Shown: positions 24,365 through 37,831 of the stretch, one piece after another | How positions within the stretch are numbered: the first letter of the stretch is position 1 | How the letters are laid out: each line of letters begins with the position of its first letter | Source of the DNA: a virus | Lineage: Duplodnaviria > Caudoviricetes | IMG/VR virus record: IMGVR_UViG_3300028628_000004 | Length of the DNA: 64,000 nt | Strand: one strand, 5' to 3' | Notes under the pieces: generated by a model | Databases searched by the model: none | Seen by the model: the letters and a program-made list of their open reading frames with translations, nothing else | Told to the model about the DNA's origin: nothing | Program-made: the position numbers and the translations under genes

Positions 24365-24450
24365 TGGTAGGGGCGACAGGAATTGCACCTGCACGGGATT
24401 TCTCCCACAACGTTCTAAGCGTTGCATGGCTGCTGTTACATCACACCCCC
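24365..24450 (-). tRNA. tRNA-Leu(TAG)
   Basis: CAACG-CT-TAG-AA-CGTTG, long variable arm. Confidence 0.88.
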
Positions 24451-24460
24451 ATGATTTATT

Positions 24461-24550
24461 TGGCGGAAGATGAGGGATTCGAACCCCCGGTACCCGTTAA
24501 GGTACTTCAAGTTAGTAACTTGCTGCTATAGACCACTCAGCCAATCTTCC
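24461..24550 (-). tRNA. tRNA-Ser(ACT), rare A34 anticodon
   Basis: CAAG-TT-ACT-AA-CTTG in a canonical Ser body with G73. Confidence 0.85.
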
Positions 24551-24648
24551 GGATGGTCCCACTGCTATATCGTCTTATGCTGCGAATCGCTGCGATATTG
24601 CTTAATGTCCAGTTCGCTCGTACACAGTTGGGATGATACGCTGGACGC

Positions 24649-24732
24649 TGGTAGGCAAGGTGGGACTCGAACCCACAAAACGACCGTGTTTGAGACGGCA
24701 AACTGTGCCATTCGTTATAACGTCACTTGCCC
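24649..24732 (-). tRNA. tRNA-Leu(CAA), enlarged D arm and short variable loop
   Basis: GCCGT-CT-CAA-AC-ACGGT. Confidence 0.8.
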
Positions 24733-24788
24733 ATGATCAATTTCGTTACTTTAGCGCAACGGAGTAAGAAATTGTAAGAAAGCCGTTT

Positions 24789-24922
24789 TGGTGTTGAGAG
24801 AAGGAGTTGCACCTTCACAATACAGATTTTCTGTTTCCGTATTTCCTTTTATTCATAGGAAGTCTACTACAGATGTTACCTCTTCATAGGCAATCATTCG
24901 TTTCATTTAGTCACTACTCAAC
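24789..24922 (-). ncRNA. tRNA-derived RNA with bulged acceptor stem
   Basis: GTTGAG(T)AG/CTCTCAAC-ACCA, T arm, D-loop insertion. Confidence 0.6.
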
Positions 24923-24928
24923 ATGAGA

Positions 24929-25036
24929 TGGTGCCCCGCCGCTGACACGCTCAGCTATTACGGAAGGTCTTTTACCTTTCTAACCCCTCAAATCCTTTCG
25001 GATGCTGGAGAGAAGTCTGCTGTCCCCTACGAGGAC
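24929..25036 (-). ncRNA. Degenerate tRNA-like RNA
   Basis: ACCA end, imperfect acceptor, hairpin within the anticodon arm. Confidence 0.4.
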
Positions 25037-25078
25037 AGGTGAAGGTTGGCGGGGCGAGTTGTTTATCCAGCTTTGATT

Positions 25079-25196
25079 TGGTGTTGAGGGTAGGACTTGC
25101 ACCTACATACTTGGATGCATGCTGGTCCAAGTTCCCTCTAAAACGAGGGTGCGTCTACTACGGGAATTGAACCCGCTCTTTCCGCCACTACTCAAC
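25079..25196 (-). ncRNA. Leu-like tRNA-derived RNA with a second T arm in the D loop
   Basis: GTTGAG(T)AGTGGCGGAA..GCGGGTTCAATTCCCGT..GTAGACGCA; ACCA end. Confidence 0.65.
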
Positions 25197-25197
25197 G

Positions 25198-25339
25198 TGG
25201 TGTCGATGGTAGGATTCGCACCTACACGCTCAAGCGTCCATGAGTTGTTTCCTTCTCATTTTTGCTAAGCCCCAGGTTTGGACCATGCTTTCGTTTAGGT
25301 CTTCAGCCCAGTCCGTCTGCTCGTTGCGGCACATACGAC
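25198..25339 (-). ncRNA. tRNA-derived RNA with bulged acceptor and large insertions
   Basis: GTCG(T)ATG/CATCGAC-ACCA; T arm GTAGG-TGCGAAT-CCTAC. Confidence 0.55.
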
Positions 25340-25348
25340 AAGAAAACA

Positions 25349-25465
25349 TAAGTATGCTCGGGAGTCGAACCCGACATCATTGGGGTGCATGCAGCCCCTC
25401 CACCGTGGATATGCATCTCTGCATACGGTAGGATTCGAACCTACTAGCGACCATCGACATACTTA
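25349..25465 (-). ncRNA. RNA with two T arms and a 9-bp closing stem, no CCA
   Basis: TAAGTATGT/GCATACTTA; GTAGG-TTCGAAT-CCTAC and TCGGG-TTCGACT-CCCGA. Confidence 0.6.
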
Positions 25466-25468
25466 CTT

Positions 25469-25542
25469 TGGCACATGGGGAGAGAATCGAACTCCCATCT
25501 TTGGGTTTGGAATCCAAGGTACTACCATTGTACGACCCATGT
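25469..25542 (-). tRNA. tRNA-Trp(CCA)
   Basis: TTGGA-TT-CCA-AA-CCCAA, G73. Confidence 0.88.
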
Positions 25543-25550
25543 ATAAAATC

Positions 25551-25940
25551 TTTGTTGACCCATCCGGTGTGCTGTTACGCTAAAACGGTGGTTTGCTTTA
25601 CTATCTATTATACACCCACAATCACACATAATCCACTCGTGTGGACTTTGACGAGCAATAGATTGCTCTGCGTATGAAAGAGAGGCGGATTTCTTACGAA
25701 ACCAATCTTACTCGCCTCACTCGGTGGGAACCCCATACTTGGAGTTGATGTGACAAGTTACTCATACGCTGGCTACAAGTGGTTCTCGGTCTTCCTTTTT
25801 ATCGGCTGTCTTTATAGCTTGCTCTAAGGCTTGCTTTCAAGACTCCTTGTAGTAGTCGTATGCTTGCTCATTTCTATACAGCGCCCGTACTCTTTAAATG
25901 ATGGCTGCTTCTAAGCCGACATTTCGGTTCGGTCAACAAA
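25551..25940 (-). ncRNA. 390-nt RNA containing a split 23S rRNA H43/H44 (uL11-binding) mimic
   Basis: ATGTCGGCTTAGAAGCAGCCATCATTTAAAGAGT ... GCGTAACAGCACACCGG, closed by a 10-bp terminal stem. Confidence 0.75.
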
Positions 25941-26013
25941 ACTTGAGGTTTCTTAAAGTCGCTTATCCTCTTGCGACATGACAGTTTCAACTCCAACTCT
26001 GTCAAAGGGAAAA

Positions 26014-26112
26014 TGGTGCGGGCGACAGGATTTGAACCTGCGATTTCTTGCTCCCTGGCAGTTACTATTAGGTAACTAAAGCAAGCGGAATACCAGACTT
26101 TCCTACACCCAC
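26014..26112 (-). tRNA. tRNA-Pro(TGG)-like with a 22-nt GCCA-ended hairpin insert (26056..26077)
   Basis: CTTGC-TT-T[insert]GG-GA-GCAAG. Confidence 0.75.
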
Positions 26113-26144
26113 ATCAGAAACTATTATATCACATAAAAAGAAAA

Positions 26145-26219
26145 TGGTCTGGGCGGTTGGAGTCGCACCAACTTCTTCTCCCTTCCAAAAGGAGCCGTCT
26201 ACTGTTGACCTACGCCCAG
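26145..26219 (-). tRNA. tRNA-Pro(TGG)
   Basis: CTCCT-TT-TGG-AA-GGGAG, C1-G72. Confidence 0.85.
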
Positions 26220-26220
26220 G

Positions 26221-26931
26221 TTATATTTCAATTCCAAGAATTTTACATCTTTTTCTTATTGCATTATCAGACACCCCGTATTTTACACCTATTTTAGTCA
26301 TAGGCATTTTGCTAACATCATCCATTAACTGCTCTTTACTAACTTCAAATTTACGGCGTTTCTTACAAGAACATTTTAGACATTTATTGTTTTTATTTTT
26401 TGTTGTTACACACCCACATTCGTCACAGTTATGTCTTTTTGCGTGATATTGTTTATTTTTACCAGAAAAAGTAGAAGTTTGAGAGTGGCAGTTTGGGCAT
26501 AAGAAACATAGATTTTCTATTCTGTTATCATTATGTATTCCATTCTTATGTTCTAATTGAAGAGTTATTATCTTACCCAACCATACTCCATTGTTCCCAC
26601 AGCAACTACACTCGTATTTTAGTAATCCTTCATTGACCAATCTTTTTTTAAGATAATGTCTAGCGTATGATGAATTCTGGGTTAATACCTGTGATAATGG
26701 TTTCTTCTTGGCGTTAAATTTTCTACCTTTATTGGAACCTACGCCGAGTGCTATATGTGAAATATCTACTTTTTCTTCGATGCATCTATTTTTAATTGTC
26801 TTGTAATTTCCTCCTTTATTTTCCATTCCGACATATTTTAGTATTTCGCTTATAGTGTTAGATGATGCTACTAATCTAGCGAATTCTTCTTTTGGTATTT
26901 TCCAAATTATGCTTCTCTTTTTTCTTGTCAT
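26221..26931 (-). CDS. HNH homing endonuclease, paralog of 22981..23820
   Basis: LQLEHKNG..NDNRIENLCFLCPNCHSQT; shared GVSDNAIRKRCK tail. Confidence 0.9.
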   Translation of the reverse strand: MTRKKRSIIWKIPKEEFARLVASSNTISEILKYVGMENKGGNYKTIKNRCIEEKVDISHIALGVGSNKGRKFNAKKKPLSQVLTQNSSYARHYLKKRLVNEGLLKYECSCCGNNGVWLGKIITLQLEHKNGIHNDNRIENLCFLCPNCHSQTSTFSGKNKQYHAKRHNCDECGCVTTKNKNNKCLKCSCKKRRKFEVSKEQLMDDVSKMPMTKIGVKYGVSDNAIRKRCKILGIEI

Positions 26932-26940
26932 ATATTCTCC

Positions 26941-26986
26941 TTATCGGTAGTATATTATACCATGTATTTATATATCCTACCGATAA
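26941..26986 (-). promoter_or_regulatory. Hairpin abutting the RBS, with TATAAATA in its loop
   Basis: TTATCGGTAG...CTACCGATAA-GGAG. Confidence 0.7.
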
Positions 26987-26990
26987 AAAC

Positions 26991-27064
26991 TGGTTGGCTC
27001 ACTAGGTTCTGCCCCTAGACTAAAACGTTCAAAGCGTTGTATGCTGCTGTTACATCATGAGCCA
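26991..27064 (-). tRNA. tRNA-Gln(TTG), variant elbow
   Basis: AACG-CT-TTG-AA-CGTT, U1-A72. Confidence 0.82.
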
Positions 27065-27068
27065 ATGA

Positions 27069-27188
27069 TAGTTGGGAGTGAGGGATTCGAACCCCCACAG
27101 AGAGATCCTGGCGACTGTTTATGGACTTGAACCACATTGTTTCCTATAACAATCAAAGTCTCTCGTCCTACCATTAGACGAACCCCCA
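27069..27188 (-). tRNA. tRNA-Gln(TTG) with a 46-nt mini-tRNA insert (27109..27154)
   Basis: AGAGA-CT-TT[insert]G-GA-TCTCT; host tRNA ends in CTA rather than CCA. Confidence 0.8.
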
Positions 27189-27194
27189 ATGAAA

Positions 27195-27269
27195 TGGTTG
27201 GCACGGTAGGTGCTGCCCCTACTACGTCGGGTGTCAGAAACCCGCATTCTGCTGTTGAATTACGTGCCA
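27195..27269 (-). tRNA. tRNA-Gln(CTG)
   Basis: CGGGT-TT-CTG-AC-ACCCG. Confidence 0.85.
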
Positions 27270-27274
27270 GTAAC

Positions 27275-27712
27275 TTACTTCTTAATCGACTTAATCAACT
27301 TAGCAAACTTCCCAGGATTTACTGTGCATGCTTTTATGCCACCGAAGTAATCGGCAACATGGAAAGCAGCTACACATATCTCTGAGCATATCCACTTACT
27401 AGGATCTTCCTTTCTGAAGGGAAGAATCATGGAAAAGAAAATAGCTTTCCAGTCATATTTCTTATCTACTTGTGTCCAACAGAAAGCTTTAATCAACAAT
27501 TCTTTTTCTGGTGGAACATCAACTTCAACTATATCCCAATGCTGATGGAAGTACATCTTATATGTAAATTGTGTCTTAAAGGGAGAAGTGAGAGAAGTCC
27601 CAAATGAGGAACCGTCAGAAAATATAAGCTCGCAATGGGAATACTTTGAGAATGTCCAGAACTGGATGAGTCTGTCAAGTATTCCCGTTCCCTTTAAGAA
27701 TGCAACTTTCAT
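27275..27712 (-). CDS. Permuted papain-like (NlpC/P60, YiiX/YebB-like) enzyme
   Basis: YSHCEL...KYDW...WICSE. Confidence 0.8.
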   Translation of the reverse strand: MKVAFLKGTGILDRLIQFWTFSKYSHCELIFSDGSSFGTSLTSPFKTQFTYKMYFHQHWDIVEVDVPPEKELLIKAFCWTQVDKKYDWKAIFFSMILPFRKEDPSKWICSEICVAAFHVADYFGGIKACTVNPGKFAKLIKSIKK

Positions 27713-27749
27713 AGAGCCTCCATAAGTATTTATCCTACGGAGTAAAAAA

Positions 27750-27824
27750 TGGTGCCTGCCCCCGGTAACGCTCCGGGTTTGTCCGCTCTTCAGGCGGGTG
27801 CTTTACTATTTAAGCTAGACAGGC
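27750..27824 (-). tRNA. tRNA-Phe(GAA)
   Basis: CCGC-CT-GAA-GA-GCGG. Confidence 0.82.
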
Positions 27825-27827
27825 ATA

Positions 27828-27898
27828 TGCAGGATAGAGGAATCGAACCTCTGACTCCGGCTTAACTGCCGGTGTGATAACCACTTCACCAATCCCGC
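27828..27898 (-). tRNA. tRNA-like with a 6-nt anticodon loop, identity undetermined
   Basis: CCGGC-AGTTAA-GCCGG; intact D and T arms; no CCA. Confidence 0.55.
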
Positions 27899-27913
27899 TA
27901 GGTTTTTGCAGAA

Positions 27914-28066
27914 CCTTAACTGACTTTCTATCATTATAGTGGCGAAGATCATCCACTTTTAAGTAGCTTGGGGTACTACTTGTGTAGCATTCCGTAGCTA
28001 ACGGAGATGCCCTTTACCAACCCTCTATAATTATTGTGGCGGGGATCGTCCACAGTAAAGCAGCTT
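27914..28066 (-). repeat. Two diverged copies of a ~56-nt pseudoknot motif
   Basis: AAGCT.CTT.A..GTGGA.GATC..CGCCAC.ATAAT.ATAGA..GT..GT.AAGG at 27914-27969 and 28011-28066. Confidence 0.7.
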
Positions 28067-28089
28067 TGAGCGTCCTCATTGCCCTATCA

Positions 28090-28160
28090 AGTATCATTAC
28101 GGAATCGAACCGTTCCTCCCGCGTCATAAGCGGGTATGCATCCGTTACACCAAAGATACT
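28090..28160 (-). tRNA. tRNA-His(ATG), rare A34 anticodon, no CCA
   Basis: CCCGC-TT-ATG-AC-GCGGG. Confidence 0.7.
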
Positions 28161-28174
28161 CTTAGCTTCAAACT

Positions 28175-28251
28175 TGGCGACTCCAGTGGGGTTTGAACCC
28201 ACGACCTATTGCGTGACAAGCAATTGCTCTCCCAGGCTGAGCTATGGAGCC
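28175..28251 (-). tRNA. tRNA-Asp(GTC)
   Basis: ATTGC-TT-GTC-AC-GCAAT. Confidence 0.9.
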
Positions 28252-28255
28252 ATAA

Positions 28256-28330
28256 TGGCGGGTCTAGGGAGACTTGCGCTCCCCTTTTCGGATCGACAAT
28301 CCGATATGTCGCTATCTACATTTTAGACCC
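28256..28330 (-). tRNA. tRNA-Asp(GTC), variant elbow
   Basis: TCGGA-TT-GTC-GA-TCCGA. Confidence 0.82.
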
Positions 28331-28447
28331 AAAAGACCACACCGTTTCTGCATTGTTAAGAGGCTGGTATGGTGCTACTGAACGACCACTCATGGTTGAG
28401 CATCTTAGAGAGGCTTGAGTGGGGCGGAGCCGTTTCATGCTCCTTAT

Positions 28448-28526
28448 TGGTGGGCAAGGTGGGAATCGAACCCGACCTCAACAACTTTATCAGAGTTGCA
28501 CTAGCATACCAGCTAGACTCTTGCCC
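28448..28526 (-). tRNA. tRNA-Ile(GAT)
   Basis: CAACT-CT-GAT-AA-AGTTG. Confidence 0.82.
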
Positions 28527-28739
28527 AAAAATGTACCAACTTCACGCATCGGTCCATGAGCATTCAAATAAGGTTCTTCCATTGAAGGAAATGAATGATC
28601 TTATAGGAGACAGGGTGCTACCCTGGCTGAACAGCGGCGTTAAGGATCCCCTTCCGGGTCCAAGTGGATTTATTCTCCCCTCGACATGGAGATTTTGGTG
28701 GTGGATATATTTTAAGACCGCTACCGCCACACGGTCTGC

Positions 28740-28814
28740 TGGCACCCCAGGAAGGACTCGCACCTTTCATCTTCGGTTTCGTAGACCGACGTTCTTCTGT
28801 TATACTACCGGGGT
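28740..28814 (-). tRNA. tRNA-Arg(ACG)
   Basis: TCGGT-CT-ACG-AA-ACCGA. Confidence 0.85.
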
Positions 28815-28821
28815 ATGAGAA

Positions 28822-28892
28822 TGGCAGGCAATCGTGGTGCTTACCCACGCTGATCTTCGTTCGAAGCGATGATTGCTCTCGGAGCATTGCCC
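28822..28892 (-). tRNA. tRNA-Arg(TCG), reduced D arm
   Basis: TCG-CT-TCG-AA-CGA; GCCA end. Confidence 0.65.
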
Positions 28893-28904
28893 ATGAAAAA
28901 GATT

Positions 28905-29041
28905 GTAGCAAGACGGCTACATAAGCCGCATTCATCATCAAGATAACTACCCGTCCTGGGAACTTAATCGTGGGACTTCAACCCCCGTAGTTAGGCTCTT
29001 TATTTCCCCTTGATGTGTCTTTATGTTTAGACGATTGCTAC
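28905..29041 (-). ncRNA. tRNA-derived RNA with expanded anticodon arm
   Basis: GTAGCAA/TTGCTAC; D-like arm; CATCAAG/CTTGATG enclosing about 70 nt. Confidence 0.5.
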
Positions 29042-29042
29042 T

Positions 29043-29230
29043 TGGTGGGGGAGGTTGGATTCGAACCAACATGCCTCATCGGAACTTATCAGTTAAGTCC
29101 CACGCCTTACGCTCGTTGGGTAATTACTCCGTATGAGCATCGTGGGTTGAATTCTCTATTGTGAGTAACGTTATCTCTCACAGAAAATTCGTTTGTTCAA
29201 CGAGTCGCTTTGCCATTAGCGTACTCCCCC
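29043..29230 (-). ncRNA. Tyr-like tRNA body with ~110-nt structured insertion replacing the anticodon
   Basis: GGGGGAG/CTCCCCC-ACCA, canonical D and T arms. Confidence 0.65.
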
Positions 29231-29281
29231 AAAAGATGAAGGTTGCTTGCGTTAGTGGAAGCGAGCCTACAAACCTACGCA

Positions 29282-29355
29282 TGGTGGGCAATAAGGGAAT
29301 CAAACCCCTGTATTCTGAACGTCAATCAGATGTTCTATCATTGAACTAATCGCCC
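29282..29355 (-). tRNA. tRNA-Val(GAC)
   Basis: TCTGA-TT-GAC-GT-TCAGA. Confidence 0.87.
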
Positions 29356-29357
29356 AT

Positions 29358-29388
29358 AAATCAAACTACGCTATAGAGTTGTTAAACG
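29358..29388 (-). promoter_or_regulatory. boxA-like plus CGTAGTTTG leader motif (1 of 5 copies; others at 30810, 37357, 38257, 38751)
   Basis: GTTTAACAACTCTATAGCGTAGTTTGAT directly 5' of a tRNA. Confidence 0.65.
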
Positions 29389-29484
29389 AAGCATTCGCTT
29401 CGTGGCTCTACTATAAGAGGTCTTCTGTGTAATACAATAGGAGCGACACACATACATCAGGAGTGTATCACACAGAAGCTTTGC

Positions 29485-29573
29485 TGGCGGAATCACACTG
29501 AATCGAACAGTCCAGACCTTCAAGCCTGGGGACGGCTTTCGAAACCGATTGAACACCTTGTTCCCGTGACTCC
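29485..29573 (-). tRNA. tRNA-Ser(CGA), 8/4 fold
   Basis: CGGT-TT-CGA-AA-GCCG; 8-bp acceptor, 4-bp T stem. Confidence 0.8.
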
Positions 29574-29580
29574 AAAACTT

Positions 29581-29673
29581 TGGCGGATAGAGAGGGATTC
29601 GAACCCCCGGTGCCCGTTAAAAGGCACTTCGGTTTTCAAAACCGACGCAATCGACCTACTCTGCCATCTATCC
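29581..29673 (-). tRNA. tRNA-Ser(TGA)
   Basis: TCGGT-TT-TGA-AA-ACCGA. Confidence 0.92.
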
Positions 29674-29677
29674 ATGC

Positions 29678-30064
29678 CTACATCCATAATCTACCTAATC
29701 TTTTTTCAAATAGCTTTTGAGCCTTTAAAAACATCTTTGCGTCCTCCGCACATAAAGATGGATATACTTGAGGTTTCTCTTTACTAGGAAGACGAGTAAC
29801 AGTGGAGAAGCCATCTATCATTGCCTTCAAGTCCCTGACAAGTTTCTTGTCTTGCTTATCATCTGGATGCATCTTATGAAGATACATCTTGAGACGAGGA
29901 ACTATCCAGCTACAAAAGGCAACATCCAAGTTTATTATTTCTTCGGCTCGGATTGCTTTGTTGCTCACGATATCATCAGCGAGTTTGAGAAGGCTCTCAT
30001 TTTTTTCTCTGAGCTTCTCGTTTTCTTCTTCGAGTTGCTTGATGTATATCTTTTCCTGTGTCAT
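29678..30064 (-). CDS. Hypothetical protein (coiled-coil N-terminus; NLD..F..WI.PRL..Y phage-type motif)
   Basis: ORF track; TTGATA-N17-TATAAT promoter. Confidence 0.75.
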   Translation of the reverse strand: MTQEKIYIKQLEEENEKLREKNESLLKLADDIVSNKAIRAEEIINLDVAFCSWIVPRLKMYLHKMHPDDKQDKKLVRDLKAMIDGFSTVTRLPSKEKPQVYPSLCAEDAKMFLKAQKLFEKRLGRLWM

Positions 30065-30098
30065 ACACCTATTATAACTATGGTATATGATATATCAA

Positions 30099-30188
30099 TG
30101 GTGGAGTAAGGAGTAATCGAAACTCTGCCCCCTTGCGGCGACCTTTCGCTTTCCAGGCGAACGCATCTCCCCGATGCTTCTCTACTCC
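30099..30188 (-). tRNA. tRNA-Ser(GGA), 8/4 fold with bulged A
   Basis: TTCGC-CT-GGA-AA-GCGAA. Confidence 0.78.
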
Positions 30189-30194
30189 ATGAAA

Positions 30195-30476
30195 TTAACC
30201 GCCAAGTATCTTATCAAAATCAAACTTATCTTTGATAAACTTATGAAAAAACTGACCTTTACTTGGTGAAAATTTAAATTTATCTTTTAAGAATCTTGAT
30301 ATGTTGTTATAAGCATATACTACAGAAGGGTCGCCTTCAAACCTAATATACAATATTTTTTTCTTACGTGAATATCCAGATTGGATAATAGCAGTCGAAT
30401 CAACATTTGTTGGTGTTAAATTGGCTTCTTCAAGTTTCTTCCAAGTTTCTTGGAGATGTTTATGAATATTATCCAT
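30195..30476 (-). CDS. KTSC domain protein
   Basis: VDSTAI..SGY....ILYIRF....VYAY..I......SKGQFFHKFIK. Confidence 0.85.
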   Translation of the reverse strand: MDNIHKHLQETWKKLEEANLTPTNVDSTAIIQSGYSRKKKILYIRFEGDPSVVYAYNNISRFLKDKFKFSPSKGQFFHKFIKDKFDFDKILGG

Positions 30477-30495
30477 GTATTCATATTTATAAAAT

Positions 30496-30569
30496 TGGTG
30501 CTGCTCCAAGGAATCGAACCTTGTTTCCCTACATACCAAGCAGGTGTAATACCAGTATACTAGAGCAGC
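30496..30569 (-). tRNA. tRNA-Thr(GGT)
   Basis: CCTGC-TT-GGT-AT-GTAGG. Confidence 0.9.
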
Positions 30570-30574
30570 ATAAG

Positions 30575-30714
30575 ACCAGAGAAGAGATTGGGAGCAACAG
30601 TGTTTTTGCCGCTCTGCCGTTGAGCTACCTCACCGTTTGTGGTGAGGGTAGGATTCGAACCTACATCCTGCTCCTTATAATGGAAGTAACCGTCACAATG
30701 ACTACTTCTCTGGT
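30575..30714 (-). ncRNA. YrlA-type Y RNA
   Basis: Long closing stem; T arm, then closed acceptor-like hairpin, then D arm (permuted tRNA domain). Confidence 0.75.
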
Positions 30715-30716
30715 TT

Positions 30717-30807
30717 TGGTGGAAGGTGGGAGAATCGAACTCCATTCCCATTAAAGGGAACAATTTCTTTAGCAAAGAATTCCAGTACCACACTGGTTCT
30801 ACCTTCC
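30717..30807 (-). tRNA. tRNA-Ser(GCT), 8/4 fold with bulged A
   Basis: TTCT-TT-GCT-AA-AGAA. Confidence 0.8.
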
Positions 30808-30834
30808 ATAATCAAACTACGCTTATAATGTTGT

Positions 30835-30870
30835 AAAAAGAAAAACCCCGACTTTTTGAGTCAGGGTTTT
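30835..30870 (-). terminator. Attenuator A terminator
   Basis: AAAACCCTGACT-CAAAA-AGTCGGGGTTTTTCTTTTT. Confidence 0.85.
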
Positions 30871-30899
30871 CAGAGGGTGCCTATTTTTAGGTCTTTCTC

Positions 30900-31004
30900 T
30901 TACTTACCTGACTCCTGAGTAATAAAATCAGAGAGACGGCGACTCGACAACCATGATGGTTGGAGTTGCTGGACTGGCTGATGGGTGGGTAGGAGGTTAA
31001 TCAT
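30900..31004 (-). CDS. Leader peptide A, MINLLPTHQPVQQLQPSWLSSRRLSDFITQESGK*
   Basis: 34-codon ORF between TATAAATA (31018-31025) and the terminator; contains antiterminator GAGTCAGG. Confidence 0.75.
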   Translation of the reverse strand: MINLLPTHQPVQQLQPSWLSSRRLSDFITQESGK

Positions 31005-31106
31005 AATGTTCTATCTTTATTTATATGCGTATTCTAACATGTCCTGAGAAAAATACAATAAGTATTTTTACCATTGCGTAGTTTGTAATGTTTATAAGGA
31101 CTTACA

Positions 31107-31406: not shown

Positions 31407-31481
31407 TGGTGCTACTTGAGAGATTTGAACTCCCGACCTTCTGTTTACAAAACAGATACACTACCACTGTGTTAAAGTAGC
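31407..31481 (-). tRNA. tRNA-Thr(TGT)
   Basis: TCTGT-TT-TGT-AA-ACAGA. Confidence 0.9.
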
Positions 31482-31485
31482 ATAA

Positions 31486-31560
31486 TGGTGCCCCCACCAC
31501 GACTCTCACATGGCTTTCCGGAGTACAAAACCGGTGTGTCGATATCTACACTTTAGGGGC
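31486..31560 (-). tRNA. tRNA-Thr(TGT), variant elbow
   Basis: CCGGT-TT-TGT-AC-TCCGG. Confidence 0.75.
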
Positions 31561-31592
31561 ATATGCCTCCCACTGAAGGGAGGTCTTGTAAT

Positions 31593-31922
31593 TTACTTCA
31601 AAAGCGACAGCTTACCGAAAATAGCTTTGGACACTTCGTTGTCGATGGGTTCAAAAGCAGTTGCGGTTTCTGCGTTAGACATATCGGGTTCTATGAAGGT
31701 GGTGTATGATAACTCCATTCTGTCATAGAGTGCCTTTATGCTTGCAATTTCGTTATCCGTTGCGGAGAGAAGAATCATTGTCTTGTGGTTGTTCACCCAA
31801 TCAATGACTTTGGGCTTCTGTCCGTGTTGTGCCATAAACTCGGCAGCCGCGTGGCTACTCTGTACAGCACAATGAGTTAACGGAAGTATATCTCGTCTGA
31901 TGAGGATGAACATCTTAAGCAT
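31593..31922 (-). CDS. Peptidyl-tRNA hydrolase, Pth2-like
   Basis: KMFILIRRD....CAVQSSHAAAE...W...KTMILL...FIEPD...ETATAFEP; GGAGG RBS. Confidence 0.8.
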   Translation of the reverse strand: MLKMFILIRRDILPLTHCAVQSSHAAAEFMAQHGQKPKVIDWVNNHKTMILLSATDNEIASIKALYDRMELSYTTFIEPDMSNAETATAFEPIDNEVSKAIFGKLSLLK

Positions 31923-31926
31923 TTTG

Positions 31927-32313
31927 CTATATACCTCCGGTGCCACAGGCACACTCGGGTATGAGAGCATCTTGTTTCTCCTTGACGTAATCTTCCATTC
32001 TCTTACGAATGATTTCAGAAGACTGAACATATTCTTTTTCTCTCTCTTCGTTTAAGTGGCACTTACCACGAACCTGTCCATACGCTATATGCATACAAGT
32101 AGTCCGGTACTTATCGTTGCGGATTGCGTTCTCTGCACACCACCAGTATTTTTCACCTGATGTATCGTAGGGGTAGGCATTGCCTGGAAGTCCAGTTGAT
32201 GCACTACGCTGGTTGCGGCGTAAAGCCTGTTTGTTGTGAGCAAGTCTCTCAGCGAGAGTCTTGATTTCGCTGCGGAAAAATTCCATTGCGAGTTTATGTT
32301 GGGTTATATCCAT
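31927..32313 (-). CDS. Hypothetical protein co-transcribed with Pth2
   Basis: AAGGA RBS; HIAYGQVRGK. Confidence 0.75.
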   Translation of the reverse strand: MDITQHKLAMEFFRSEIKTLAERLAHNKQALRRNQRSASTGLPGNAYPYDTSGEKYWWCAENAIRNDKYRTTCMHIAYGQVRGKCHLNEEREKEYVQSSEIIRKRMEDYVKEKQDALIPECACGTGGI

Positions 32314-32365
32314 GATTTTATTCCTTAAGGTTGATTGTTGAGTTTACGAACTACAGACAATCAGC

Positions 32366-32413
32366 TTATGGAGGACCACGAATCAGCTACCCATACTCTT
32401 TGTTCTAACGCAT
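32366..32413 (-). promoter_or_regulatory. Amber-interrupted leader M-R-*-N-K-E-Y-G-*-L-I-R-G-P-P-stop
   Basis: AAAGGA RBS, then ATG CGT TAG AAC AAA GAG TAT GGG TAG CTG ATT CGT GGT CCT CCA TAA. Confidence 0.7.
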
Positions 32414-32445
32414 AGCTATCCTTTCTTGTTGAGGTTAATACGACA

Positions 32446-32521
32446 TGGTGCTTCCGGTGGGATTTTAACCCACAACCAAGCGGTTTAGAATCGCTTGCTC
32501 TTTCATTTGAGCTACGGAGGC
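32446..32521 (-). tRNA. Amber suppressor tRNA (CTA)
   Basis: AGCGA-TT-CTA-AA-CCGCT, full cloverleaf, ACCA. Confidence 0.8.
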
Positions 32522-32526
32522 ATGAA

Positions 32527-32601
32527 TGGTGCCCATCTCTGGTAACGCTCCAGATTCTCTACGATACGAATGTAGTGCATCGCTTTTAATGCTTGATGGG
32601 C
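32527..32601 (-). tRNA. tRNA-Thr(CGT)
   Basis: CTACA-TT-CGT-AT-CGTAG. Confidence 0.8.
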
Positions 32602-32605
32602 AAAA

Positions 32606-32680
32606 TGGTCGTGGTGGTGGGAATCGAACCCACTAGGAGCGGCTTATGAAACCGCCGTCCATCCATTGAACTTCACCACG
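32606..32680 (-). tRNA. tRNA-Met/Ile2(CAT)
   Basis: GCGGT-TT-CAT-AA-GCCGC. Confidence 0.82.
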
Positions 32681-32966
32681 AGACGGGGTATGTTATTTCT
32701 TACATCTGCATACACCCCATGATATGCGGACTTCGATGTTACCTATAATAGATCCCTGACTTTGGCTTAGGGGGAGTAACATTTCCTCTAAGCCCACTGG
32801 CTTTTTGATAGGGTCAACCAGATGGGTAATAATTAGTAGGACAGTCACATGGCATGAGTAATGGGCAACCTAACTTGCCACCATGAATTACACTGAACTC
32901 TTTTTACGGGAAAGATAACCCATCATGTAAGTGTTACATCAACCCTACATTTGCCTTGCGGCTATA

Positions 32967-33041
32967 TGGCACCCAAACTAGGACTTGCACCTAGAAGAAT
33001 TCTTTAGGAAAGAATCAGTTTTCTATTTAGCTTATTCGGGC
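32967..33041 (-). tRNA. tRNA-Arg(CCT)
   Basis: ATTCT-TT-CCT-AA-AGAAT. Confidence 0.82.
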
Positions 33042-33349
33042 ATGATGAGGAAGCTTCGGGTGTATTCTATAGAATAGAAAACTTGTCCGAAGCGTCTATG
33101 CGGTTAGAAGAGTCCTCTTTCTCTACTAACTGTTCGCGATCCTAAACTCGTATCTCGGTCGTTACTCTCGGAGCCGCATATAAAGTGTCATTTAGGACAC
33201 GAGTCCACTTTACAGGAAGTTCCGTGAGTTGTTCATAGGAACTTCAGCTAATAACCCGTTTCAGTATGACCACATGGTGGTTCAAACCATATTTCTATGG
33301 CTACTTAACGAGCCAACCATATCAACTCATTCCGGTTGGGTTTGAGAAA

Positions 33350-33412
33350 GAGCCGAGATTAATCGCAACGGTGTGTTTTTCCAAAGAAGTAACCGTTACA
33401 TGACTGCGGTTC
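33350..33412 (-). ncRNA. Short Y-RNA-family stem RNA
   Basis: Shares AGTCA..GTAACGGTTACTTC...ACACCGT..AATCTC with 30575..30714. Confidence 0.6.
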
Positions 33413-33566
33413 AGGTGGTAATAGTATTCACTACAAGATTCGTTGGGCATTCCTATGCCTATCTTAGAACCTTCCACTCTCTCTGTGGCAATACTATTGG
33501 TAAGATGACAGGAGCTTCATATACTCTACTGTCTTTAAAAGTGTCTGTCCGACACTTATATGAAGG

Positions 33567-33652
33567 TGGAATCGCACGGGGGAGTCGAACCCCGGACCTT
33601 AACAGTTTTGCAGACTGCTCCCAGAAACCCTCTGAGATGAAGGGCATGCGAT
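33567..33652 (-). tRNA. tRNA-Cys(GCA), atypical D arm
   Basis: GCAGT-CT-GCA-AA-ACTGT, U73. Confidence 0.78.
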
Positions 33653-33950
33653 TATGCTGTGATACTTTCAAGAAAGCTATATCCTTGCCCACCAACACTG
33701 TTGGCTACTCAGACCTCTCTTGTTGCTTGTCACCCCTTAGTATCATAGAGGCTCGCTTAACGTTTGGGACCGTTTTCCAGATGAAAGACTGGTATGTACT
33801 TGCAGCGATTTCGCAATCCTTTGCGGTTTCACTTGCTCCAGATAAAGACCGCCTTTCACCTTCTAGTGGCGCGGCAATAATCTTCAAGTATTGCAAGAAT
33901 CCCCTTCAATCCTTGTACAGTCACAAGTAGTCCTTTTTCAAGGGACGAGT

Positions 33951-34026
33951 TGGTGCAGGTTGTCGGAATCGAACCGACGCCTTCTGATTGGAAGTCAGGC
34001 ATGCTACCACTGGACACCAAACCTGC
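33951..34026 (-). tRNA. tRNA-Gly(TCC)
   Basis: CTGA-CT-TCC-AA-TCAG. Confidence 0.88.
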
Positions 34027-34031
34027 ATAAA

Positions 34032-34143
34032 TGGTGCGCCGGGATGGAATTTAACCACCTTCCCCCTTAACTTACAGGCAACTCGCTACGCGCAGCTTGC
34101 TGCTAGTTTTTTGTAAGGCGCTCTAACGATGAGCTACCAACGC
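34032..34143 (-). ncRNA. tRNA-derived RNA with elongated anticodon hairpin
   Basis: GCGTTGG/CCGGCGC-ACCA; D and T arms; long hairpin in place of the loop. Confidence 0.6.
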
Positions 34144-34324
34144 ATATTTTTCTGTGTGTCTTCCATCCTTTTCTTTTAAGTGTTCTGACCAAACTTCGTC
34201 TCACACACCTTCCTGTTTCAAGGCACTCAATGACATAAGTATAGCCAAGTTAAGAGGAATGGACTTAGGGTTACGGATTGTCATATCTCAAACCAGAAGT
34301 AATGGGACATTCGTCACAGAAAAT

Positions 34325-34399
34325 TGGAGCAGTGTAAGGGAATTGAACCCTTGTATCCAGCTTGGAAGGCTGGCACATAAGCCTCTCTGTCAACACTGC
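34325..34399 (-). tRNA. tRNA-Gly(TCC)
   Basis: CCAGC-CT-TCC-AA-GCTGG. Confidence 0.88.
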
Positions 34400-34606
34400 A
34401 TAGGATCTACTATACGCGAGCTAGTAGATGTTTTATTTCTTTCTTTGAATACCACTCATCGTCCCTCGCATCGTAATGGGTGATATGAAATTTAGGCTAC
34501 TTGGGAATCTTGTTCGCAAAGGAACCACCCGATGCTACTAGAGACTCCTGTTCACACAGGGTACTTACTCGCCGCAACTGGTTAGGAATTAGCTTTCAAT
34601 ACCGTT

Positions 34607-34726
34607 TGGCTGGAAAGAAGGGATTCGAACCCCTGACCTAGTGATTATGGTGATGAGCGTAAGAGTTGAACTTACTGATTCCTTTGCCCATTACAGTCAC
34701 TTGCACTACCGCTGTGCTACTTTCCA
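34607..34726 (-). tRNA. tRNA-Asn(GTT) with a 45-nt mini-tRNA insert (34648..34692)
   Basis: AGTGA-CT-GT[insert]T-AA-TCACT. Confidence 0.8.
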
Positions 34727-34732
34727 ATGATT

Positions 34733-34830
34733 TGGCGTTCCCGGTAGGATTTGAACCTACGACCATTGGATTATGGCAGTGATTTGTTAATCACCGAAAT
34801 CCAAAGCTCTTCCAACTGAGCTACGAGAAC
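34733..34830 (-). tRNA. tRNA-Arg(TCT) with a 22-nt GCCA-ended hairpin insert (34774..34795)
   Basis: TTGGA-TT-TC[insert]T-AA-TCCAA. Confidence 0.82.
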
Positions 34831-34833
34831 ATG

Positions 34834-34912
34834 TGGCACCCATGGTAGGAGTTGAACCTACATGTATCCAGTTAGCTTTCTCCTGCTTAGAAGGCAGGCG
34901 GCATACATGGGC
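34834..34912 (-). tRNA. tRNA-Arg(TCT), D-arm-less with expanded variable region
   Basis: CCTGC-CT-TCT-AA-GCAGG. Confidence 0.75.
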
Positions 34913-34923
34913 ATGAAGAAATC

Positions 34924-34987
34924 GGGGAGATTAGGAGTTACGGTGTTTTGTTTCATAAGGTGAAGTAACCGTAACAATGACTGCCCC
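34924..34987 (-). ncRNA. Short Y-RNA-family stem RNA
   Basis: GGGGCAGTCATTGTTACGGTTACTTC...ACACCGTAAC..AATCTCCCC. Confidence 0.6.
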
Positions 34988-34995
34988 AAAGGATT

Positions 34996-35113
34996 GTGTT
35001 AGCATAGGGGGATTCGAACCCAGGCAACATAAGTCGCCTGTTTTACCCGCATGACATTTTAGTGACCGCTATTTGCAGTCTGTCGGATCTACCGCTGAGC
35101 TACACGCTAACAC
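34996..35113 (-). ncRNA. tRNA-like RNA with an 11-bp closing stem, no CCA
   Basis: GTGTTAGCGTG/TATGCTAACAC; TAGCTCAGCGGTAGA; GGGTTCGAATCCC. Confidence 0.5.
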
Positions 35114-35302
35114 GAAAAGGTGAGTCTCTAGTAGGCTGGCGAGAGGCTACGATGGTTAGTCGTATAAGCGACCTGAAAAAGTCGCTCCACGTTCACTACT
35201 AGGCACCCGAATTAAATTGGTGGACAGAATTACCTTTTACGATTAGCTGCCCGATCCTAATCAACCATTGTTAGATGGGGAAATGGTATCGAATAACCCC
35301 TT

Positions 35303-35378
35303 TGGTGGACACAAAGGGAGTCGAACCCTTCACAGATGCATTGCAAGTGCGTCTCGCCCCCACGGAACATGTGTGCCC
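35303..35378 (-). tRNA. tRNA-Ala(TGC)
   Basis: GCA-CT-TGC-AA-TGC, G3.U70. Confidence 0.82.
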
Positions 35379-35442
35379 AAAAATGGTGAAGCTGGTTTCT
35401 TTTTATGAGTGAAACACTTTGCCTCTAACAAAAGTTCTCGTA

Positions 35443-35518
35443 TGGTGGAATGATCCGGCTACGCTCCGGACGCCTCCTGCGTGCAAGGCAGGCGCTCTAC
35501 TGAATGAGCTATCACCCC
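35443..35518 (-). tRNA. tRNA-Ala(TGC), variant elbow
   Basis: CCTGC-CT-TGC-AC-GCAGG, G3.U70. Confidence 0.85.
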
Positions 35519-35599
35519 ATGGAAAGCTATATGTTTCTTTTTGTTGACAGGGAAAGAAACTTGTAGAGTCGCTTAGCTTCTACTAGAAAGAACCCACGA

Positions 35600-35675
35600 T
35601 GGATGCGGTGGGCTGGACTTGCACCAGCGATTCCCGCCTTATGAGGGCGGTGAGATGCTACTTCTCTACCCCGCA
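35600..35675 (-). tRNA. tRNA-Met(CAT), initiator-like body
   Basis: CCGCC-CT-CAT-AA-GGCGG. Confidence 0.8.
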
Positions 35676-35707
35676 ATGCTGAAGGTTATTAGATACCTAC
35701 AAACTTT

Positions 35708-35781
35708 TGGAAGCGCAGAAAGGAGTCGCACCTTTATCTATTGGTTATGAGCCAATTATGCTACTGTTACACCACCGCGCA
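35708..35781 (-). tRNA. tRNA-Met(CAT), 1:72 mismatch
   Basis: ATTGG-CT-CAT-AA-CCAAT. Confidence 0.8.
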
Positions 35782-36530
35782 GTGTTAATACGAATTCTAC
35801 CCTTTACAAATCCCATTTCTATATATTTGTTTATGTCATTTTTATTTATTCTAAAACATTCACCAGTTTGAAGATTCTTCACCCATATGAGTTGAGAATA
35901 TATTTTACCATATCTCTCTTTCATAGTGTTTGATAAGTTTTCTCTTGTTTCTTTCGATGACATTCTTTCTTTCATTTTTTGTGAAAGTAATGTCTTAGTT
36001 TCGTTACTTCCACATTCACTCTCTTTTTTGTATCTTTCTTTTACTGATAATGAGATTTTGTTTCTTACCTCATCATTTATATATCTTTTCTTTGCTCTAT
36101 CTGACATTTTCTTTCTCGTTTCATCTGATATAATTCTTGTCTTATTAGTATCTATCATTTTTTGTTTTGATTCTTTCGAGTAGGTTTTTGGTTTCTGACT
36201 TATTATGGAGAGCTTTCTTTTTGTCTCATCAGTGTGATTCTTTCCTCTAAACTTTGGTCCACCTTCGCCACCAACTGATATGTTATAAACATCTTTTCTT
36301 TTTATAAAATCTTCATTCACAATAAGTATTTCCATTTTATCCATTTGCTCTTCGTTGTCAAAAACATGGAGTATTTCTTTTGTAAAGTTACTTCTCCCAT
36401 ATTTCTTAACGGCAGCCTTTATATGATGTCCGGAACCTAAGTAATCATCGTTGATATTTTCGGTTTGGTGCTTCCCAATGTAAATCTTACCGTTTATCTT
36501 ATTAGTTATCTTGTATATGGTATAAAACAT
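35745..36530 (-). CDS. GIY-YIG homing endonuclease (Seg-like) with NUMOD3-type repeats
   Basis: TIYKITNKINGKIYIG; YNISVGGEG; HTDETKRKLS; GGAG RBS. Confidence 0.9.
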   Translation of the reverse strand: MFYTIYKITNKINGKIYIGKHQTENINDDYLGSGHHIKAAVKKYGRSNFTKEILHVFDNEEQMDKMEILIVNEDFIKRKDVYNISVGGEGGPKFRGKNHTDETKRKLSIISQKPKTYSKESKQKMIDTNKTRIISDETRKKMSDRAKKRYINDEVRNKISLSVKERYKKESECGSNETKTLLSQKMKERMSSKETRENLSNTMKERYGKIYSQLIWVKNLQTGECFRINKNDINKYIEMGFVKGRIRINTARWCNSSIIGS

Positions 36531-36667
36531 AATACTCCTATTATACCAGTATTTATATTTCATAACCAAACGATTTACTGCTTCTCTATCAAAAATGGGA
36601 GCCAACCTAACGCAAGCTAGGGACACTTTTTACGGCTATCACAACTTACATACGACACAGATGAATC

Positions 36668-36738
36668 AGGGAGATTATTAGCTACGGTGTTTTTTTTTCG
36701 TTTTATGTAAATGAAGTAACCGTAACAGTGACTGCCCT
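36668..36738 (-). ncRNA. Short Y-RNA-family stem RNA
   Basis: AGGGCAGTCACTGTTACGGTTACTTC...ACACCGTAGC..AATCTCCCT. Confidence 0.6.
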
Positions 36739-36741
36739 AAA

Positions 36742-36817
36742 TGGTACACCCACAGGGAATCGAACCCTGATTAAGAGAATGAAAGTCTCCTGTACTGAGC
36801 CATTATACTATGGGTGC
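36742..36817 (-). tRNA. tRNA-Glu(TTC)
   Basis: GGAGA-CT-TTC-AT-TCTCT. Confidence 0.88.
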
Positions 36818-36973
36818 ATGTGAGTTACAGAGCCAAATGTAACTCTTATTATATTTACATGGTCGGGTTGGTCCTCCATGGGTCGCTGACAACAGAATTG
36901 CTGTGCGAGCCAACTCTCCCTCTTGCGAGTTCTATGAGTTGCGCTATCTATTGCTTTGACCGTTCTATACAAC

Positions 36974-37049
36974 TGGTACTCCTTGAGAGACTTGCACTCT
37001 ACTTTATACGCTTGAAAGGCGTGTTTCTTACTACATAGAAGAAAGGAGC
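36974..37049 (-). tRNA. tRNA-Glu(TTC), variant elbow
   Basis: ACGC-CT-TTC-AA-GCGT. Confidence 0.8.
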
Positions 37050-37100
37050 ATGAACAGAGTTTTTCTTCCGCCAGGAAAAGGAAACTCCAAAACTTTGAGA

Positions 37101-37180
37101 TGGTCCGCGAGGCTGGATTCGAACCAGCTTGTATCCGTATAACCTTTCAACGATTTATAAGACCGAGGGTGTACTCGCGG
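37101..37180 (-). tRNA. tRNA-Ile(TAT), D-arm-less with expanded variable region
   Basis: CGGT-CT-TAT-AA-ATCG. Confidence 0.75.
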
Positions 37181-37276
37181 GTAACTTTTCCTCGCATTTC
37201 TGCGTTAGGGTCTAATAGGTTATCAATACAAAGAGATGTAGCAGCGTTTATAGTGAGTTATGCTGCGATCACATTC

Positions 37277-37351
37277 TGGTGGGTCGCCACGGGGTCGATC
37301 CGTGTTCCATGGTTTAAAAGACCATTGCATCAGCCCTAATGCTTGCAACCC
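37277..37351 (-). tRNA. tRNA-Lys(TTT)
   Basis: ATGGT-CT-TTT-AA-ACCAT. Confidence 0.85.
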
Positions 37352-37448
37352 ATAATACAAACTACGCTATACACTTGTGAAGTCGCTGGCATTGCTGCCG
37401 TTGATGATACCATCATACAGCCCCTTTCAGGAATGCAAGAGGTAATTT

Positions 37449-37534
37449 TGGTAGGGGTAGTCGGACTTGAACCGACACTCCGGTAAAGGAAGCGGATTTT
37501 AAATCCGATGCGGCTGCCATTACGCCATACCCCC
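37449..37534 (-). tRNA. tRNA-Leu(TAA)
   Basis: CGGA-TT-TAA-AA-TCCG, long variable arm. Confidence 0.88.
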
Positions 37535-37552
37535 ATTTTGTCAACAAGAAAT

Positions 37553-37830: not shown

Positions 37831-37831
37831 T

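Follow-up and report, generated by a model that had tools for sequence, protein, structure and literature searches.

A candidate codon-sampling attenuator before a block of transfer RNA genes in an uncultured giant phage

Leader A and the tRNA genes around it

Here we describe leader A, a short leader that stands before one of two blocks of transfer RNA (tRNA) genes in IMG/VR virus record IMGVR_UViG_3300028628_000004 and that probably works as a transcription attenuator reading the codons served by those genes. The analysed stretch of 64,000 nucleotides (hereafter the window) comes from an uncultured giant phage of activated sludge; nearly all of its genes lie on the minus strand, and they encode a class II ribonucleotide reductase, homing and HNH endonucleases and a baseplate-wedge-like protein that is weakly similar to T4-like cyanophages. 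The tRNA array of the window occupies 16 kb and holds some 45 tRNA and tRNA-like genes together with a tmRNA. All leader, terminator and tRNA-block features are on the minus strand, and those belonging to leader A are listed here from upstream to downstream, with reference to two relatives, L005 and L006, that are introduced below.

31018–31025, minus strand: TATAAATA box resembling a T4 late promoter, 13 nt 5′ of the leader A ATG, kept in L005 and L006
30900–31004, minus strand: leader A open reading frame (ORF), 34 codons plus TAA, starting with ATG, 97% identical in L005 and L006
30907–30914, minus strand: 5′ arm of the antiterminator, GAGTCAGG, within codons 31–33 and 5–12 nt 5′ of the stop codon
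30841–30871, minus strand: intrinsic terminator A, a 13-pair stem with a CAAAA loop, then CTTTTT
30808–30838, minus strand: repeated motif TTnACAA-n6/7-AGCGTAGTTTG-n5/6, ending at a tRNA 5′ end
22354–30807, minus strand: tRNA block A, the presumed regulated unit (ARAGORN, Rfam and parsing by hand)

A preliminary description of this DNA had proposed a leader composed of the TATAAATA box, a 34-residue peptide, an antiterminator complementary to a terminator arm, and the terminator itself, and all of these elements are present where it placed them. The antiterminator arm GAGTCAGG is the exact complement of CCTGACTC (30865–30858) in the 5′ arm of the terminator, a segment that is common to the terminator and the antiterminator. 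Together with its T tract, the terminator spans 30871–30835, and tRNA-Ser(GCT), the first gene of block A, begins at 30807. Across the 18-kb tRNA region there are only two strong minus-strand terminators (30871–30841 and 38818–38794), the second of which stands before the first tRNA of the array just as terminator A stands before block A. Since each strong terminator precedes its own tRNAs, the array splits naturally into two blocks, of which block B, with its leader B, lies upstream.

31407–38745, minus strand: tRNA block B (ARAGORN, Rfam and parsing by hand)
38847–38912, minus strand: leader B ORF, 21 codons plus TAG, with TATAAATA upstream, sampling 13 of 15 block-B species
38794–38850, minus strand: leader B switch, in which CTAGAGGCT (38850–38842) overlaps the TAG (shuffle P = 0.0055)

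In leader B, CTAGAGGCT is complementary to AGCCTCTGG (38817–38809) of the 11-pair terminator at 38818–38794. Hexamers resembling a −10 element lie 5–6 nt upstream of TATAAATA in both leaders (TAGAAT, at 5 nt, in leader A and TACAAT in leader B) and are kept in the relatives. The TATAAATA sequence occurs 14 times in the window, with 13 copies on the coding (minus) strand; nearly all copies lie 15–45 nt before a start codon, from which a Shine-Dalgarno sequence usually separates them. This is the placement of a T4-type late promoter, and we regard the box as a putative promoter.

We called tRNAs with ARAGORN and Rfam and by parsing cloverleaves by hand, the last because ARAGORN at relaxed thresholds was unreliable for unusual tRNAs. 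Block A encodes Ser-GCT, Thr-GGT, Ser-TGA, Val-GAC, Arg-ACG, Ile-GAT, Asp, His, Phe, Gln-TTG, Pro-TGG, Trp, Leu-CAA/TAG/GAG and Ser-ACT, along with a YrlA-like RNA, the tmRNA and HNH endonuclease genes; it comprises 15 decoding species (GCT/ACT, GGT, TGA, GAC, ACG, GAT, GTC, GTG/ATG, GAA, TTG, TGG, TAG, CCA, CAA, GAG). Most of the block A tRNAs named in the preliminary description were recovered, the exceptions being Ser-GGA, Ser-CGA, Gln-CTG and Arg-TCG, which appeared in none of the ARAGORN, Rfam and hand-parsed calls. Block B encodes Gly-GCC/TCC, Tyr, Asn, Val-TAC, Lys-CTT/TTT, Leu-TAA, Glu, three to four copies of Met/Ile-CAT, Ala, Arg-TCT/CCT, Thr-TGT and an amber suppressor (CTA), and likewise comprises 15 decoding species (GCC, GTA, GTT, TAC, CTT, TAA, TTT, TTC, CAT, TGC, TCT, TCG or TCT, TCC, CCT, TGT).

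Five tRNAs carry inserts of 22–46 nt in the anticodon loop (26014–26112, 27071–27188, 34035–34143, 34607–34726 and 34733–34830, minus strand). The inserts terminate in a GCCA- or ACCA-like sequence, and at this length they cannot be group I introns. Because the anticodon (TAG or TGG, TCG or TCT, GTA or GTT) hinges on the boundaries of these inserts, the statistics below were repeated under three alternative tRNA assignments.

Codon content, folding and conservation of the leaders

Scored under strict wobble rules, leader A contains 26 codons that only block A can read and 4 that only block B can read, and leader B contains 2 block-A-only and 15 block-B-only codons. This division is specific to the reading frame: Fisher's exact P for the A/B split is 5e-7 in the ORF frames and 0.2–0.5 in the two shifted frames, and the reverse-strand frames of the leaders show no split at all. 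When the tRNA species were partitioned at random, none of 100,000 partitions fitted both leaders as well as the real one, and the result was the same under all three tRNA assignments. Thus the earlier proposal that the two leaders divide the genetic code as the two blocks do holds up, including in the cross-scoring of each leader against the opposite block that it had called for. Its count of 29 of the 33 post-start codons of leader A in boxes served by block A was also reproduced, as 26 strictly block-A codons, CCC and TCT by codon box, and the shared TTG. The remaining four are, as it had said, AAC and three codons in or beside the antiterminator arm, namely GAG, GGT and AAG. At these three, pairing dictates the sequence, and a ribosome stalled at that point could not signal; AAC itself reads ACC, a block-A codon, in L005 and L006.

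Measured against background codon usage from 24 long genes, in which 43% of informative codons are block-A codons, leader A is enriched for block A with a binomial P of 9.5e-7 (background 0.43). It ranks first among the 595 short ATG-initiated ORFs in the window for this enrichment, and no 33-codon window from real genes, 11,325 in all, reaches its level. In the opposite direction, leader B is second of the 595 (P = 0.0065). Beyond enrichment, leader A covers its whole block: all 15 block-A species are called on within codons 2–27, a coverage with P = 3.5e-5 for random codons, found in none of the 11,325 real windows, and with P = 0.007 even when 27 codons are drawn from block-A codons only. 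It uses 25 different codons, and no tRNA species dominates. In leader B, 13 of the 15 block-B species are covered and all 20 post-start codons are different; values corresponding to the leader A coverage tests are P = 2.6e-4, 8.6e-5, 0.002 and 0.006, with P = 0.002 when codons of its own block only are drawn.

We considered a C-rich, rut-like composition as the full cause of this codon bias and rejected it, as enrichment in the remaining frames of leader A is mild (16:10 and 18:8). Given these mild values, and no enrichment in the other frames of leader B, base composition is not the main cause.

Next, we folded nascent transcripts cut just 5′ of the terminator 3′ arm, with a ribosome represented by a footprint of 28 nt. 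For leaders A and B, and for that of a distant relative, L003, the antiterminator helix is the minimum-energy nascent fold; in leader A it is the 8-bp GAGTCAGG/CCTGACTC helix. Placing the footprint on the stop codon abolishes the antiterminator and lets the terminator form in the full transcript, whereas the antiterminator helix survives a footprint at codon 8 or in the middle of the ORF. The best complement of the terminator arm begins at −11 (A), −1 (B) and +4 (L003) nt from the stop codon, with shuffle P values of 0.03, 0.006 and 0.05, respectively, in a conservative test covering the upstream 110 nt with arms restricted to the stem. The fold z-score of leader A is −3.3, and folding predicts no pairing around its start codon.

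The comparison drew on three near relatives and a distant one. Leader A is carried by L005 (1.3 kb), found via the neighbouring gene for a 91-residue protein, and by L006 (6.3 kb), a metagenome contig recovered in the second of two metagenome-contig scans, the first having given no match; leader B is carried by L002, a 13-kb viral contig. DNA near-identical to the window is present in many activated-sludge sequencing runs, and the four runs that we examined yielded short contigs only, identical or nearly identical to it; the one run among them marked as possible RNA is probably DNA. Other searches returned little: DNA searches of the phage collection with 1.1 kb around leader A matched tRNAs only, tblastn of phage records with the 91-residue protein gave no match, nor did a scan of species-representative genomes with the same protein, and DNA and protein searches found no cultured relative of the window phage in the phage collection. 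Viral contigs were likewise without match when scanned for the junction of promoter and tRNA, the core of the ORF, the terminator or the Pth2-like protein encoded nearby. Further relatives of the 91-residue protein are P0002 and P0003.

The leader A frame, on whose conservation the preliminary description had made its proposal depend, is intact in both L005 and L006, with 3 substitutions and no insertions or deletions (indels), in contrast to its flanks, which do contain indels. In L005, 102 of the 105 ORF positions are identical, and identity is 75% in the neighbouring 91-residue gene, 81% in the upstream intergenic region and 71% in the terminator. Similarly, leader B in L002 differs by two substitutions, both synonymous, next to a methyltransferase gene that is 80% identical. 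Indels occur in the 5′ untranslated region, after the leader B stop codon and in the terminator loop, with none inside either ORF, and in L006 the tRNA-Ser 3′ of leader A has diverged strongly but the leader has not. The terminator changes in a manner that preserves its structure: the stem CCCTGACT/AGTCGGGG becomes CCCTGGCT/AGCCAGGG in L005, a compensatory change, and an A>G substitution in the shared arm of L005 still pairs with both partners, forming a G-U pair with the unchanged GAGTCAGG.

This conservation extends to synonymous sites. The synonymous divergence (pS) of leader A is 0.04–0.08 versus 0.76–0.83 in the 91-residue gene (P below 1e-11), and that of leader B is 0.14 versus 0.74 in the methyltransferase gene (P = 4e-6). 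Synonymous sites frozen in this way argue against an ordinary peptide gene and fit selection on nucleotides or codons. A further constraint at the RNA level, such as a pause, a structure or a role in trans of the released leader RNA, probably adds to selection on codons.

The distant relative L003 (20 kb), whose neighbour protein is 61% identical, shares a homologous terminator module with leader A, yet the module is preceded by an unrelated ORF of 16 codons, MRRTYIASVQGKEGTA, ending in TAG. Directly after this stop codon lies CAGGGTTGA, whose complement, TCAACCCTG, is another segment of the arm. Independent evolution of an antiterminator on the same terminator is an argument for selection on the switch itself. 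Codons of the L003 leader are mostly NNA, and 13 of 15 are read by the tRNAs downstream, a match that is weak when taken alone (P = 0.02–0.04; 11 and 12 in the other frames); these tRNAs are Tyr, Thr-TGT, Ala, Lys, Ile-TAT, Glu, Gln-TTG, Arg-TCT, Gly, Val-TAC and Ser-TGA.

Attenuation model and alternative explanations

A short ORF, an intrinsic terminator, a mutually exclusive antiterminator and codons matched to the downstream supply, elements by which an attenuator is recognised, all occur together in the sequence of leader A, though a clear protector hairpin does not. The attenuator interpretation put forward in the preliminary description is supported at this level by the exclusive folds, the codon match, the covariation in the terminator and the conserved frame. 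We therefore favour, with fair confidence, a trp-style ribosome-mediated attenuator that senses the decoding of block A's own codon set. In such a mechanism, transcription would begin at the TATAAATA/TAGAAT promoter region and the 34-codon ORF would be translated as RNA polymerase moves on. If all codons were read fast, the ribosome would reach the TAA and cover GAGTCAGG, the terminator would form and a leader RNA of ~165 nt would be released. A stall at any of codons 2 to ~27 would leave GAGTCAGG free to pair with the emerging CCTGACTC, and with the antiterminator paired, the terminator could not form and polymerase would read through into the tRNA block. As the leader A codons call on every block-A species, the leader would be a negative-feedback sensor of the decoding capacity of the block, and leader B would do likewise for block B.

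A broader extension of this model is a homeostat of the tRNA pool in giant phages, in which every block of tRNA genes would be under feedback from its own leader ORF listing the codons of that block, and loss of any species would switch on exactly the block that replaces it. The trigger could be host anticodon nucleases, late-infection decay of host tRNA or mismatched codon usage. We consider the chances of this extension to be evenly balanced.

Several observations weigh against an attenuator of this kind. Foremost, leader A has no Shine-Dalgarno sequence, an absence that the preliminary description had already flagged, although most genes in the window have one, and this is the main weakness of a model that depends on translation; moreover, a transcript starting as expected from a TATAAATA-type promoter would have a 5′ untranslated region of less than 10 nt. 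Nascent RNA also folds as the antiterminator without any ribosome. With the antiterminator as the untranslated default, the design would amount to termination only once the leader is fully translated. The protector pairing in the full-length fold is weak, at only 5 bp (CUCCU/AGGAG), and a classic 1:2 element is not evident. On the codon side, third-position changes that keep the tRNA species (Y/Y, R/R), which would be free under a pure inventory model, are almost absent, and a GTC>GTA change in both L005 and L006 removes the only Val-GAC codon of leader A. Close relatives are few, with two for leader A and one for leader B, and the codon match of the L003 leader adds little by itself. Finally, if the motif between the terminator and the first tRNA were an independent promoter, the attenuator would gate only part of the transcription of the block.

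This motif, of ~30 nt, occurs in five full copies, each just before a tRNA 5′ end (29362, 30813, 37358, 38260 and 38752) and ending 5–6 nt before it, with the same arrangement in L002, L005 and L006; its AGCGTAGTTTG core has 7 copies in the window versus 0.69 expected. The sequence called a boxA-like motif in the preliminary description is there as the first half of this longer element, and its identity as a boxA is one of two readings. In the other, slightly favoured on account of the fixed distance to the tRNA end, the motif would be a promoter starting at tRNA +1, with TAGTTT at −12 to −7 and a box near −30, a geometry that recalls the activator-dependent middle promoters of T4. Alternatively, the motif may be a boxA/boxC-like RNA signal making polymerases that have passed the attenuator processive through the untranslated array, a reading favoured by promoter-like sites and small hairpins within about 100 nt upstream of the internal copies. 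The boxA consensus used for comparison is GCTCTTTAACAA-like; TTTAACAA is exact in one copy (29362), and the other four read CTTTCACAA, CTTTACAA, CTTCACAA and CTTTTTACAA. Like boxA/boxC of the rrn type, the motif would place a TTTAACAA-like sequence and then a GT-rich element at the head of long untranslated RNA arrays; unlike in rrn boxA, only one of the five copies matches the core well, and the 5–6 nt spacing suits a promoter or processing signal no less well. A sigma-70 reading of the motif, TTTACA-18-GATTAT, was rejected, as transcription would begin inside the tRNA.

Two copies of the AGCGTAGTTTG core lie on the plus strand. One, in the segment 21789–21845, is followed 20 nt later by a terminator-like hairpin (21820–21845), and the two could define a tiny transcript. 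The second (31075–31085) points antisense into the 91-residue gene and is kept in L005 and L006.

The promoter reading of the motif leads to another account of the locus, a plain terminator-promoter junction at which the hairpin ends the unit of block B and the 91-residue gene, the motif is the block A promoter and the ORF is non-regulatory. The position of the motif before five tRNA 5′ ends, with TAGTTT spaced as a −10 element and a conserved box near −30, agrees with this account, as does the lack of a Shine-Dalgarno sequence in leader A. We nevertheless consider it unlikely, as it leaves unexplained the frame-specific codon match, the 15/15 coverage and the partition test, a 97%-identical ORF beside a 75%-identical gene, the arm complements at the stop codons of three unrelated leaders, and the conserved promoter-like boxes just 5′ of a 34-codon ORF.

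Improbable, too, is a generic sensor of translation rate, that is, an attenuator reporting overall ribosome speed or availability in the manner of erm/cat-type leaders. The switch geometry asks for nothing more than a late ribosome at the stop codon, the 25 different codons of leader A show no dominant species and, according to folding, read-through is the default when the leader is untranslated. A generic sensor, however, needs no codon partition, and the real partition follows the blocks (P < 1e-5), with each leader avoiding the codons of the opposite block.

The terminated transcript of ~165 nt might instead be a small RNA that acts in trans or binds a factor, as does rnTrpL of Sinorhizobium, with the ORF incidental or secondary. 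Near-total conservation of nucleotides, even at sites that are neutral under the codon model, would suit such an RNA, as would the fold z-score and the possession of its own promoter-like boxes and terminator. Yet neither the frame-specific match to tRNAs nor the stop-codon placement common to three leaders is predicted by a small RNA alone, and no Rfam family, T-box riboswitches included, matches 30810–31025 at E up to 0.1. As a replacement for the attenuator we regard it as distinctly improbable; as an addition, a small-RNA role is compatible with it. Least credible of all is a functional 34-residue protein with the hairpin simply as its terminator: a promoter box at the usual distance, an ORF intact in three genomes and a terminator fit it, but conservation is equal at synonymous and replacement sites (pS as above, about 0.8 next door), the Shine-Dalgarno sequence is missing, and an exhaustive HMMER search of 1.84 billion representatives found no relatives, only two low-complexity matches in long proteins.

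An attenuator at leader A would have close counterparts. Leader-peptide attenuation is textbook knowledge for amino-acid operons (trp, his, thr, ilv, pheA, pheST), whose leaders can answer to several amino acids, Ile/Leu/Val for ilvGMEDA and Thr/Ile for thr. Like leader A, the attenuators of amino-acid operons (ilvGMEDA, thr, trpL, hisL, pheL) have a short ORF with the pairing to the terminator arm beside its stop codon, and, as proposed here, a ribosome at the stop leads to termination and an upstream stall to read-through; the distance from stop codon to terminator in leader A (about 60 nt) is similar to that of trpL. They differ in that the genes regulated by leader A would be tRNAs, not biosynthetic enzymes, and leader A devotes one or two codons to each of 15 species in place of runs of a single codon, lacks a clear 1:2 protector hairpin and a Shine-Dalgarno sequence, and resides in a phage. 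In Escherichia coli, the pheM attenuator of pheST applies leader-peptide attenuation to a decoding component, Phe-tRNA synthetase; in contrast to leader A, it senses one amino acid, targets a synthetase and has no codon inventory. T-box riboswitches share with leader A the sensing of tRNA state through a terminator and antiterminator before translation-related genes, but they bind uncharged tRNA directly and need neither a ribosome nor an ORF. Leaders of resistance genes (ermC, cat, mef/mel) use a slowed ribosome to remodel downstream RNA (PMC4335068); there the stall is caused by a drug and a specific nascent peptide, whereas in leader A the information would lie in a codon choice matched to the genes downstream.

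In full-text literature searches we found neither attenuation of tRNA genes or tRNA arrays nor a leader sampling a codon set, and a genome-wide attenuator survey that we searched makes no mention of tRNA genes. The mechanism would be of a known type, set apart by tRNA genes as the target, a whole codon set as the input and the phage setting. If the model is true, phage tRNA arrays are a regulated, self-correcting supply and not constitutive cargo, which bears on the near-complete tRNA sets of large phages and on how they cope with host defences that target tRNA (for context, PMC11555353). Block membership and leader codons would have to co-evolve, so the model would also bear on the order of tRNA genes in arrays. 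It would, in addition, provide a natural design of a multi-input sensor for synthetic biology, and it is directly testable with short reporter constructs.

Amber suppressors and other RNA features of the arrays

Amber-suppressor tRNAs (CTA) are found at 32446–32521 (minus strand) in the window and at 14830–14904 and 15285–15358 in L003. Leaders of the suppressor-carrying blocks, leader B and that of L003, end in TAG, and leader A, whose block has no suppressor, ends in TAA; the stop codon may be part of the codon list of a leader. After the TAG of leader B comes the codon AGG, which is decoded by Arg-CCT; the ORF leaves two block-B species unsampled, and this is one of them. In L002, a 1-nt insertion turns this codon into GAG, and L002 carries an extra Glu-CTC tRNA. 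These correspondences may be a coincidence.

Within block A, the segment at 30716–30575 (minus strand) is not a tRNA but a YrlA-like Y RNA, closed by a helix of 9 bp (CCAGAGAAG/CTTCTCTGG) that surrounds a tRNA-like module in permuted order, namely T arm, acceptor 3′ strand, loop, acceptor 5′ strand and D arm. The Rfam match to YrlA is weak (32 bits), and the acceptor helix covaries with that of L005 (GGTGAGG/CCTCACC versus GGGAAAG/CTTTTCC).

Unusual tRNAs are present in both blocks. Two tRNA-like genes (27828–27898 and 38508–38586, minus strand) have anticodon loops of 6 nt and 8 nt, respectively, and were given two-letter anticodons by ARAGORN; they could be frameshift-decoding tRNAs or decayed copies. 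An odd Arg-TCT tRNA at 34837–34912 (minus strand), with a counterpart at 9828–9903 in L003, has the anticodon loop CTTCTAA and extra sequence 3′ of the anticodon stem and lacks a normal D arm; it is kept in both phages and was detected by Rfam only.

Functions in ribosome rescue lie beside the tRNA arrays: a tmRNA (109 bits) is found towards the end of block A at 22532–22906 (minus strand), with a counterpart at 12986–13358 in L003, and a gene for a Pth2-like hydrolase is located at 31593–32030. Rfam matches to the abiF RNA occur within the tRNA arrays of the window (28385–28422, minus strand, 41.6 bits) and of L003 (14499–14535, 49.6 bits), both above the gathering score of 37. The L003 array also contains a group I intron match (57 bits) between protein genes at 10936–11121. 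Lastly, a gap between tRNAs at 25881–25922 (minus strand) has a short match of 23 bits, below threshold, to positions 1098–1143 of bacterial 23S rRNA, in the GTPase-associated centre.

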